39,041 nt of DNA from a virus (taxonomy: Duplodnaviria > Heunggongvirae > Uroviricota > Caudoviricetes), in IMG/VR virus record IMGVR_UViG_2667527592_000008; one strand, 5' to 3'. Within the stretch, counting starts at the first letter, position 1, and each line of letters opens with the position of its first letter. This document shows positions 1-1,566 of this stretch, in pieces. The translations under genes and the position numbers were made by a program. The notes under the pieces were generated by a model, which saw only the letters and a program-made list of their open reading frames with translations, searched no databases and was not told where the DNA came from.

Positions 1-234
1 CATGAGGAACAAATTGCCGCAGCCGAACTGGAAAAGCAGCAATTGATTAATCAGGTCAACGAATACATAAACAGTAAGCAATGGCCTGGTAAAGCGGCGA
101 TTGGTCGCCTGAAAGGTGAGGAACTGGTGCAATATAATTTGTGGCTGGATTATCTGGACGCACTGGAACTGGTCGACACTTCCGGTGCGCCTGATATTGA
201 ATGGCCTACGCCTCCGGAAACTCAGGCCAGATAA
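1..234 (+). CDS. Tail fibre assembly protein, alternative-orientation copy (3' fragment; 5' end outside window)
   Basis: Reading frame is open from base 1 (HEEQIAAAELEKQQLINQVNEY...EWPTPPETQAR). The C-terminal architecture parallels the minus-strand Tfa at 206..808 (coiled region then WPE/P tail). Convergent with it, as for U and U' in the Mu G segment. Confidence 0.6.
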   Translation, partial: HEEQIAAAELEKQQLINQVNEYINSKQWPGKAAIGRLKGEELVQYNLWLDYLDALELVDTSGAPDIEWPTPPETQAR

Positions 235-808
235 TACCCGGTACGGTGCCGGTATCTGTTGCCGTCACCGCATCGATGTAATCCAGTACGGCGTTAAGTC
301 GGGTTGTTTCCGCCTGTGTCAGTTTTCGTCCGGCCTGTAATTTAAGCTGGATAAAGCTAATGGATTGCATGGCATCATTAATTAGCTGCTGTCGTTTGTT
401 CTCTGCGCTTTCAACGGCAGCAGCATGCTGGGCTGCTTCATCAGTCACCCACTCATGCCCGTTCCACTTATCATAAGGCGTTAATGGCTTAAGCAAGGTC
501 ACGTCGTCAGGATAATCGCCGAGTAAAGAAATAATAACGGCTTCACCAGTTTCAATGTTGTACACCGTCTCTCCCCGATGGTCGACAATGTATTCCCACG
601 CTGTAAAATCAGCCGTCCTGCAAATGGTATACCCCTCTTTGTTTTTACCTGGTGCATCAATACAGGAATTTGCCGGGATGCCGACGCCGACAGAAAGATA
701 TTCAGTTGATGCAGAAATATATTCCCGCGTCTCACCGTCATAGTTATAAACGGTGATATTTCCTGCTTGAGTGGCAATAAATTCGTTATTTAATACAGCG
801 TCATTCAT
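206..808 (-). CDS. Tail fibre assembly protein (Tfa/U-like chaperone)
   Basis: 200 aa ORF immediately downstream of the tail fibre gene, with ATG overlapping the fibre stop (TAATG). Sequence looks like caudovirus Tfa proteins (N-terminal NxxFIATQAGN region, C-terminal IIWPEFPEA). Confidence 0.8.
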   Translation of the reverse strand: MNDAVLNNEFIATQAGNITVYNYDGETREYISASTEYLSVGVGIPANSCIDAPGKNKEGYTICRTADFTAWEYIVDHRGETVYNIETGEAVIISLLGDYPDDVTLLKPLTPYDKWNGHEWVTDEAAQHAAAVESAENKRQQLINDAMQSISFIQLKLQAGRKLTQAETTRLNAVLDYIDAVTATDTGTVPGIIWPEFPEA

Positions 809-1566
809 TATGCAGCTCTCACGATATAATTAAATGCAATATTACGGGGACGCGCGGATACGTAAGCCCACCAATCATATCTTTGTGCACCTTTGCTGGA
901 TGCATCAAATATCCACTTTTTGCCATTTATGGTGTTCCACTGATTGGAGGTAAGACTGTCACCGAATCCATAGTTTGCAGAACCCAGCGAACTGATATCC
1001 CCTGTATCATTGTCATCAAAGCCGGAAACGATAGTCCCCTCCTGAAATGACAGTATCGTACGCCCTGAGTCAACCCCGCGCCCGTCATCCCAGCCACGGA
1101 TAAACTCCCCGCGCAAATCAGGCAGTCTGAGCGACGGATAGGCAAGCGCCAGTTGGGGGTATTGTGAGGCCGTGAAAGCAGCTCCATTACACTTGAGCCA
1201 TCCCGCTGGCGGGACGGCAAGAGGCCACGGCACCGGAACGCCAACAGGCAAAGCAGAGCCTTCTCCCAAACCAAGGTTTTCGAGAGCCTTTTGCACCGTG
1301 CCGTCCAATTTGATATCGCCAAACGGATTCTTGCGGCTTAACAGCAACGCGCGAAGCGCGGTAAGTAGCTGATCCGTTTTTTTGGGGTCAGGTTGAATAT
1401 GTGCACCACCAAGAACATTAAGGAGTTCCTGCTGTAAATCACGGGTTGCCCCCTGCTGATTGTTTAAATAACCAGCAGTCACGAGGGTTCCTTCTATCCC
1501 CTGAGTGGGGTCACCATCATGAAACAATTGATCCGGTGTATTTATCGGGGGCATCAGATTTTGCAT
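808..1566 (-). CDS. Tail fibre protein (constant N-terminus plus variable C-terminal tail-collar-like domain)
   Basis: 252 aa ORF after the baseplate genes. C-terminal part has a tail-collar-like pattern (PVGVPVPWP...GWLKCNG...[22 protein letters not shown]). A gix/hix-like crossover site lies inside the gene at 1261..1286. Confidence 0.8.
1261..1286. other. gix/hix-like 26-bp crossover site for a Gin/Hin/Pin-family serine invertase
   Basis: TTCTCCCAAACCAAGGTTTTCGAGAG has the perfect 12-bp core AAACCAAGGTTT and matches about 20 of 26 positions of hixL (TTCTTGAAAACCAAGGTTTTTGATAA). It sits at the constant/variable junction of the tail fibre gene (codons for [10 protein letters not shown]). 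Confidence 0.65.

Follow-up and report, generated by a model that had tools for sequence, protein, structure and literature searches.

The closest described relatives of the locus considered here are the G segment of phage Mu (Muvirus mu, NC_000929), the P segment of the e14 element of Escherichia coli K-12, a tail-fibre segment in prophage Phi4 of strain EC958 and the 'Mu' prophage locus of strain E2348/69. In Mu, a transposable myovirus, the segment occupies the right end of the genome, and a 26-bp site joins a constant fibre part (Sc) to one of two variable parts (Sv or Sv'), each with its own chaperone (U or U') and convergently arranged. The e14 segment, next to its invertase gene pinE, can also be flipped by the invertases of other prophages, PinQ and PinR (PMC12529663), and in Mu gin mutants the Pin of e14 can stand in for Gin (van de Putte 1984, cited in PMC12529663). 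In EC958 Phi4 the prophage's own invertase is truncated, both orientations were nevertheless seen and inversion in trans was inferred by the authors (Forde et al. 2014, PMC4134206). At the E2348/69 'Mu' locus inversion has been measured directly: in its main text and Table S1, Goldberg 2014 (PMC4272514) gives 60 +/- 8% forward orientation in single-colony cultures for NC_011601.1 2749478-2751398. Here, we describe a cassette of this kind in a 39,041-nucleotide stretch of DNA from a tailed phage (IMG/VR record IMGVR_UViG_2667527592_000008; hereafter the window), most of which is a Mu-like E. coli prophage inserted in the vacuolating autotransporter toxin gene vat. Our reading, to which we assign a probability of about 85%, is that it is a Gin/Pin-type invertible host-range cassette which has lost its own invertase and is flipped in trans by the invertase of a co-resident element.

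In the scheme that we propose, window positions 1-1566 represent the right-hand two thirds of the cassette region, which forms the right end of a Mu-like transposable prophage in vat, and the fixed 5' part of the fibre gene (1273-1566) is joined at the 26-bp site to one of two alternative 3' parts, each with a Tfa chaperone gene of its own behind it. The two inverted sites would be the substrate of a serine DNA invertase that flips the ~1.84-kb cassette and so exchanges the Collar-type tip (252-aa fibre, the state found in the window) for a gp53-like tip (216-aa fibre). The phage family has lost its own invertase, leaving the first 93 nt of a pinE-like gene fused to a Mu-type terminus, and the enzyme would be supplied in trans by a co-resident element, e.g. 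a P2-like prophage or e14.

Compared with these systems, the structural features of the Mu G and e14 P segments are present in the window's prophage family, with the Fis enhancer as a candidate, except for an invertase in cis, which was looked for and is absent. The likeness to Mu extends to the spacing between the site and the invertase start (67-68 bp). Mu differs in that a full-length Gin gene (193 aa) and then com/mom precede attR, whereas the window family has 31 invertase codons, then the phage end and no mom; the Mu cassette is also longer (~3 kb, against 1.84 kb here), as is its constant part (~170 against ~98 codons). The e14 segment is of similar size (~1.8 kb) and has the inverted-repeat core AAACCTTGGTTTGGGAGAA, to which the inner half and core of the window site are identical, but it adjoins a functional pinE, which the window family lacks. 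The truncated invertase of EC958 Phi4 is described as missing its helix-turn-helix domain, so that far more of the gene is left than the 93 nt found here, and its crossover sites (...AATACCTCGGTTTAC...) and segment length (3.1 kb) are different. The E2348/69 'Mu' locus belongs to the same family as the window: the two agree at 99.9% identity over the stretch that begins at the site and reaches into the baseplate genes, and have the same sites, invertase stump and terminus, but E2348/69 carries other variable parts and chaperones and its prophage is inserted in eutC, not vat. The invertibility of this homologue, the trans action of Pin-family enzymes and the continued inversion of a prophage segment with a truncated invertase are already published. 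What appears to be new is that the truncation is family-wide and ancient, that an enhancer-sized stump abuts a Mu-type end and that the family is absent from deposited phage genomes.

The crossover site in the window (TTCTCCCAAACCAAGGTTTTCGAGAG, 26 bp) is the sole match there at up to three mismatches, with none in shuffled sequences, and is contained in frame, within ...ENLGLGE..., in the 252-aa fibre open reading frame (ORF; 808-1566, minus strand). The 12-bp core alone is weak evidence, as ~1.5 matches are expected by chance at up to one mismatch; the strength of the identification lies in the full 26-mer and in its position, exactly where similarity to public sequences switches. P2-like prophages match window positions 1-1279 at 99.8% identity, and Mu-like prophages of the E2348/69 type match from 1259/1261 to 2200 at 99.9%. 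The inner half and core are shared with the inverted repeat reported for the E2348/69 Mu locus, and a homologous site bounds the phase-variable segment measured in that strain (PMC4272514).

The left context was obtained by looking up contigs that encode exactly the 252-aa fibre, which yielded ten loci (L004-L013) at ten different chromosomal sites. These differ from window 1-1566 by 0-1 mismatches and are mutually collinear for 845 bp further left, beyond which each continues into unrelated host DNA. They contain the inverted partner site, which is identical to the window site in its inner half and central AA (14 identical bases in all, TTCTCCCAAACCAA), the gp53-like second variable part and the complete Tfa' gene (146 aa, with its ATG 207 bp left of window base 1). 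The initial annotation, made from the window sequence only, had recognised a 26-bp hix/gix/cix-like site at the constant/variable junction of the fibre gene, a reading now upheld by the uniqueness and frame of the site and by the break in similarity at its core. It had further described two tail-fibre assembly genes that converge and overlap at 206..234 (a 29-nt overlap), both of which are assigned to Caudo_TAP by Pfam, and had likened the whole to the Mu G-segment or e14 P-region architecture, which agrees with the gene layout and the left context. It had also placed the partner site, a second variable fibre part and the invertase just left of the window; the first two are found there in L004-L013, but all that is left of the invertase is a stump of 31 codons, after which the phage ends at 845 bp. 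The leftward extension that it advised, carried out through these identical copies, thus recovered the inverted partner site and no serine invertase gene.

Judged by its sequence, this short ORF encodes what was the N-terminal end of a serine invertase of the Gin/Pin type. Of the 31 residues of its translation, 24-26 agree with Mu Gin and with two of three intact invertases from P2-like prophages used for comparison (20 with the third), its DNA is 90-93% identical to the first 93 nt of the pinE genes in ~910 complete genomes, and in a sibling lineage it is annotated by PGAP as 'recombinase family protein, missing C-terminus'. Homology to intact invertase DNA ends no more than ~20 nt past a +1 T frameshift at gene nt 93, and the Mu-type end follows. 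The same frameshift and junction occur in all family members examined, including a second lineage (distinguished by a DUF2612-type baseplate protein, with a terminus 93% identical), so the truncation happened once and long ago. In 20 complete genomes carrying this terminus, the interval from the site to the phage end never contains an intact invertase, and a tblastn search of the 39-kb window with four Gin-family invertases as queries gave no match to a serine invertase. Since only the stump lies to the left and no invertase is encoded in the window, switching has to rely on an invertase gene at another place in the host genome.

That the cassette does switch is evident from public genomes. 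When the core-to-core inversion was built in silico, the fibre gene stayed in frame and predicted a 216-aa product; this protein exists (P0001, 100% identity and 100% coverage) on 16 contigs. The eight P0001 contexts that were fetched (L017-L024) contain the same Mu-like prophage at other insertion sites: five match the in silico inversion at 3045 of 3045 bases and two more have a single mismatch, all with the same stump and terminus. After normalisation for orientation, three distinct 8.4-kb haplotypes were found, each in both orientations. The unflipped L005 is identical to the flipped L019 and L023, the unflipped L009 and L013 are identical to the flipped L021, and the window (unflipped) shares both of its private single-nucleotide polymorphisms with L024, i.e. 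the complete genome CP076714.1 (flipped). The host flanks of this last pair fit together: in L024 the 5' part of vat ends in ...GTTAATG, the host sequence in the window starts with AATGAATGG... and intact vat reads ...gttaatgaatgg... The window and CP076714.1 are one vat insertion in opposite orientations, and the cassette was therefore flipped in the prophage state, within one lysogen lineage. The expectation of the initial annotation that the fibre C-termini probably switch by inversion is thus borne out by exact flipped forms in public genomes. As DNA, the flipped junction was not found in complete E. coli genomes in any record covering at least 80% of it, and the unflipped form is nearly absent from them too (two records at ~88%); both orientations were recovered through the protein collection instead.

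These observations bear directly on the idea that the locus is a frozen relic, in which the G-segment layout survives but the destruction of the invertase gene has ended inversion and fixed the fibre gene. The 31-codon stump and the lack of any invertase in the window are what such a relic would leave, yet identical 8.4-kb haplotypes occur in both orientations, even at the same vat insertion, and the E2348/69 homologue is found at ~60:40 within colonies (PMC4272514, main text and Table S1), so that this explanation is already contradicted and we regard it as very improbable. The measured 'Mu' coordinates coincide exactly with the two sites of our locus L002, whose prophage has the stump only; in the available portions of its text and supplement, PMC4272514 contains no mention that this prophage is without an invertase. 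Because the phage has none, yet its inversions are exact, recent and, in E2348/69, fast, the enzyme must come from elsewhere in the cell.

The cassette is also shared between unrelated prophages. From core to core (1847 bp) it matches its counterpart in a P2-like prophage (L001) at 99.7% identity, and at each core this match breaks off; in L001 the cassette adjoins an intact invertase, and the gp53-like tip is fused to a P2-type fibre gene. Conversely, other cassettes occupy the same backbone in relatives of the window's prophage. Modular exchange of fibre tips has long been known (Sandmeier 1994, as cited in PMC4134206), and such cassette sharing fits this picture; the crossover sites may mediate, besides inversion, the exchange of whole cassettes with P2-like phages. 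In a further family member (L014, NZ_CP184839.1, 1660-4307) the cassette is longer, an additional 'phage tail protein' part bringing the candidate fibre tips to three. Multiple inversions, as in a shufflon, may take place there, similar to the P2 locus reported in E2348/69.

Given such homologous partners in many genomes, one might ask whether the orientation polymorphism has arisen without any invertase, by RecA recombination at short inverted repeats or by swapping of cassettes between prophages. We regard this as very improbable. The two sites have only 14 identical bases (TTCTCCCAAACCAA) in common, in the flipped loci the inverted stretch runs exactly from one core to the other with 0 mismatches in 3045 bp, and homologous exchange with another cassette would leave the orientation relative to the flanks unchanged. 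Moreover, the near-equilibrium ratio in single colonies (PMC4272514, as above) indicates flipping far faster than expected for such short repeats.

Candidate donors of the enzyme are present in E2348/69, where two P2-like invertible segments each adjoin an intact invertase gene (encoding 199 and 192 aa); of these loci at least L030 has sites with the inner half TTCTCCCAAACC. L030 itself (NC_011601.1 2977585-2980112) is a P2-like remnant in which the cassette and invertase are intact and a tyrosine-integrase pseudogene is annotated in place of the constant part; its inversion is still measured, at 93% forward (Goldberg et al., PMC4272514). Three points weigh against inversion in trans as the explanation for the window. 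Its own left flank lies outside the sequence given, and we infer it from the identical copies and from L024; the donor enzyme in its host is presumed; and 11 of the 20 complete genomes with this terminus have no second pin-like locus at megablast stringency. E2348/69 is among those 11 genomes, yet carries the more divergent invertases just described.

A second question concerns the role of the stump. Wild-type invertases of the Hin/Gin family require a Fis-bound enhancer in cis; the Fis consensus is (G/T)NNYRNN(A/T)NNYRNN(C/A), with a 48-bp spacing between sites, and our scan for Fis sites was run with this consensus. Paired consensus 15-mers 48 bp apart occur at gene nt 23-37 and 71-85 in Mu gin, in the intact recombinase gene of L001 and in the stump of the second lineage (L028), at ~97 and ~145 bp from the centre of the site, and in the 39-kb window a pair with this spacing occurs by chance only once. 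The Hin enhancer spans 65 bp between and including two terminal Fis sites, lies ~100 bp from hix and, when bound by Fis, activates inversion on the same DNA (PMC3798978), and that of Gin is placed 'within the invertase gene' (PMC3798978; Kahmann 1985, by its title). The retained 93 nt end 8 nt past the equivalent of this enhancer. It is possible, though we propose it only tentatively, that the stump is a retained, near-minimal Fis enhancer in cis and that a widespread Mu-like family has outsourced its invertase while keeping two sites and the enhancer. As a candidate Fis-dependent enhancer the stump would be mechanistically likely, if unproven, because wild-type invertases need such an element in cis and E2348/69 flips with the same stump.

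Two observations count against an enhancer role. In the window-type stump the distal 15-mer fits the Fis consensus, but in the proximal one position 1 is C, where the consensus calls for G/T. The stump also shows no signal of conservation relative to its flanks when the two lineages are compared: it diverges by 12.9%, at all codon positions, compared with 0-7% for the flanks (L005 12201-12293 vs L028 4081-4173). This higher divergence points either to a faster decay or to intact pin genes having patchily converted the stump; the L028 stump reads as a canonical Pin N-terminus. Inversion in trans could thus occur while the 93 nt are mere deletion debris, the enhancer being dispensable or provided by other nearby Fis sites, a view that we consider doubtful. 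In its favour, besides the divergence and the imperfect proximal site, the presence of the enhancer region is in itself unsurprising, as any 3' truncation past gene nt 85 would retain it, and further Fis-consensus 15-mers do exist in the spacer between site and ATG and in the terminal region. Debris sits less easily with the enzymes' need for a Fis enhancer in cis, with an end point only 8 nt after the enhancer-equivalent and with the maintenance of this truncation point in two lineages whose termini differ by 7%. E2348/69, which has a window-type stump, also flips efficiently (PMC4272514).

The coordinates of the features are collected in Table 1. Both fibre fusions read in frame across ...ENLGLGE..., the 252-aa form combining the Collar tip with the 200-aa Tfa and the 216-aa form the gp53-like tip with the 146-aa Tfa'. 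The Sv of the window and the Sv that is silent in the P2-like prophage L001 share 99.8% identity, and the window's Sc is 99.9% identical to that of E2348/69-type Mu-like prophages bearing different tips. The genes after the fibre gene are homologues of Mu gp48, gp47, gp46, gp45 and gp44 according to Pfam. In several genomes the fibre genes of this family are labelled 'integrase' by RefSeq/PGAP (e.g. L015 3547-4308; L016 4754-5521). These 'integrase' genes beside the constant part were considered as recombinases and rejected as mislabelled fibre genes; the label could mislead searches for recombinases.

Table 1. Features of the invertible cassette, its left context and the surrounding prophage (negative positions are relative to window base 1)
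Feature	Position	Strand	Basis or remark
Mu-type phage terminus, TGTAACTTCGCG...	-845		host DNA beyond
31-codon pinE-like ORF (stump)	-635 to -730	-	translation MFIGYVRASTNDQDTDLQRNALNCAGYELIF, then stop
Partner site, inverted	-580 to -555		as written TTCTCCCAAACCAACATTTATGAAAA; other strand TTCTCCCAAACC AA CATTTATGAAAA
gp53-like second variable part	ends -210		L004-L013 copies
In-window part of invertible cassette	1..1272	.	whole cassette ~1.84 kb, beginning ~567 bp left of window base 1
Tfa' 3' part, 77 codons; chaperone of silent gp53-like fibre tip	1..234	+	Pfam Caudo_TAP, E 2.1e-21
Tfa, 200-aa assembly chaperone for the fibre tip currently expressed	206..808	-	Pfam Caudo_TAP, E 7e-28
Variable C-terminal fibre part Sv, Collar domain	808..1272	-	Pfam Collar, E 9e-15, residues 109-156
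26-bp crossover site, hix/gix/cix/pix type, TTCTCCCAAACC AA GGTTTTCGAGAG	1261..1286	.	unique; mosaic breakpoint; inversion boundary in L017-L024
Constant N-terminal fibre part Sc, ~98 codons; stays put, fuses to either variable part	1273..1566	-	similarity and frame
Rest of transposable Mu-like prophage (baseplate, tail, head, early region)	1566..35097	-	Pfam; no invertase

Based on its gene content, the host prophage is a transposable Mu-like phage: it encodes a MuA-type transposase, a MuB-type ATPase and Mu-type morphogenesis genes, the Pfam assignments including Mu gp44-gp48, Portal_Mu, Mu-transpos_C, HTH_Tnp_Mu_1, rve and AAA_22, together with a Ner-like protein and a CI repressor. It does not belong to Muvirus proper, as its backbone has no nucleotide relatedness to Mu or D108, gin stops short and com/mom would not fit in before the phage end. 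Public E. coli assemblies contain nearly identical copies at no fewer than 18 chromosomal insertion sites; the right end begins TGTAAC... and the left end finishes ...CCCCACA, i.e. the termini are 5'-TG...CA-3'. Among deposited phage genomes no match to the backbone (1290-35097) was found at the DNA level, similarity being restricted to ~85 nt of the fibre constant part. The prophage looks like an actively transposing, uncharacterised phage. A scan of species-representative genomes for gp48 returned only two distant loci (a Burkholderiaceae metagenome-assembled genome and Snodgrassella) and was uninformative. The eighth of the flipped contexts (L020, GCA_054550375.1, 2024-8411) is a deletion derivative of the prophage that has lost the head and tail genes and kept the invertible cassette and the terminus; its early region, comprising the repressor, the Ner-like protein and a shortened transposase of 557 aa, joins DNA ~260 bp upstream of the fibre gene.

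Near each phage end the motif (C)GCCCAGAA(T) or its complement occurs three times (34940-35097 and, at the other end, within 85 bp, L005 12325-12411). These terminal repeats are probably transposase-binding sites, equivalent to L1-L3 and R1-R3. At the right end, ~50 bp separate the attR repeats from the enhancer-equivalent of the stump. Mu makes a 5-bp target-site duplication; that of the present phage is apparently 4 bp, AATG (window 35094-35101, the L024 junction and L031 398-408), a provisional figure as the left flank used for it is that of the sister genome CP076714.1. Host vat DNA begins at 35098. The gene is interrupted after ~codon 553 (window 35098-37608, L024 8412-12651, L031 340-460), and is therefore inactivated in this strain; the window retains the C-terminal vat ORF of 876 codons with the autotransporter beta-domain.

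While these results leave the current understanding of such systems unchanged, they mean that a tail-fibre switch can stay fully active without an invertase gene of the prophage's own. An annotation rule by which a segment with no recombinase nearby is not invertible would miss this cassette, as would the refuting observation named in the initial annotation, namely the lack of a partner site or invertase within a few kb to the left together with reads in a single orientation only. The presence of 99.7%-identical cassettes in Mu-like and P2-like prophages illustrates the movement of receptor-binding modules between unrelated myoviruses. If the stump is indeed an enhancer and the invertase has been outsourced, host-range switching would occur only in hosts with another Gin/Pin-encoding prophage, which would constitute a dependency between unrelated prophages. 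Whatever the role of the stump, the host range of this phage, and the contig breaks or differences in orientation in assemblies of such strains, depend on the other prophages resident in the same cell.

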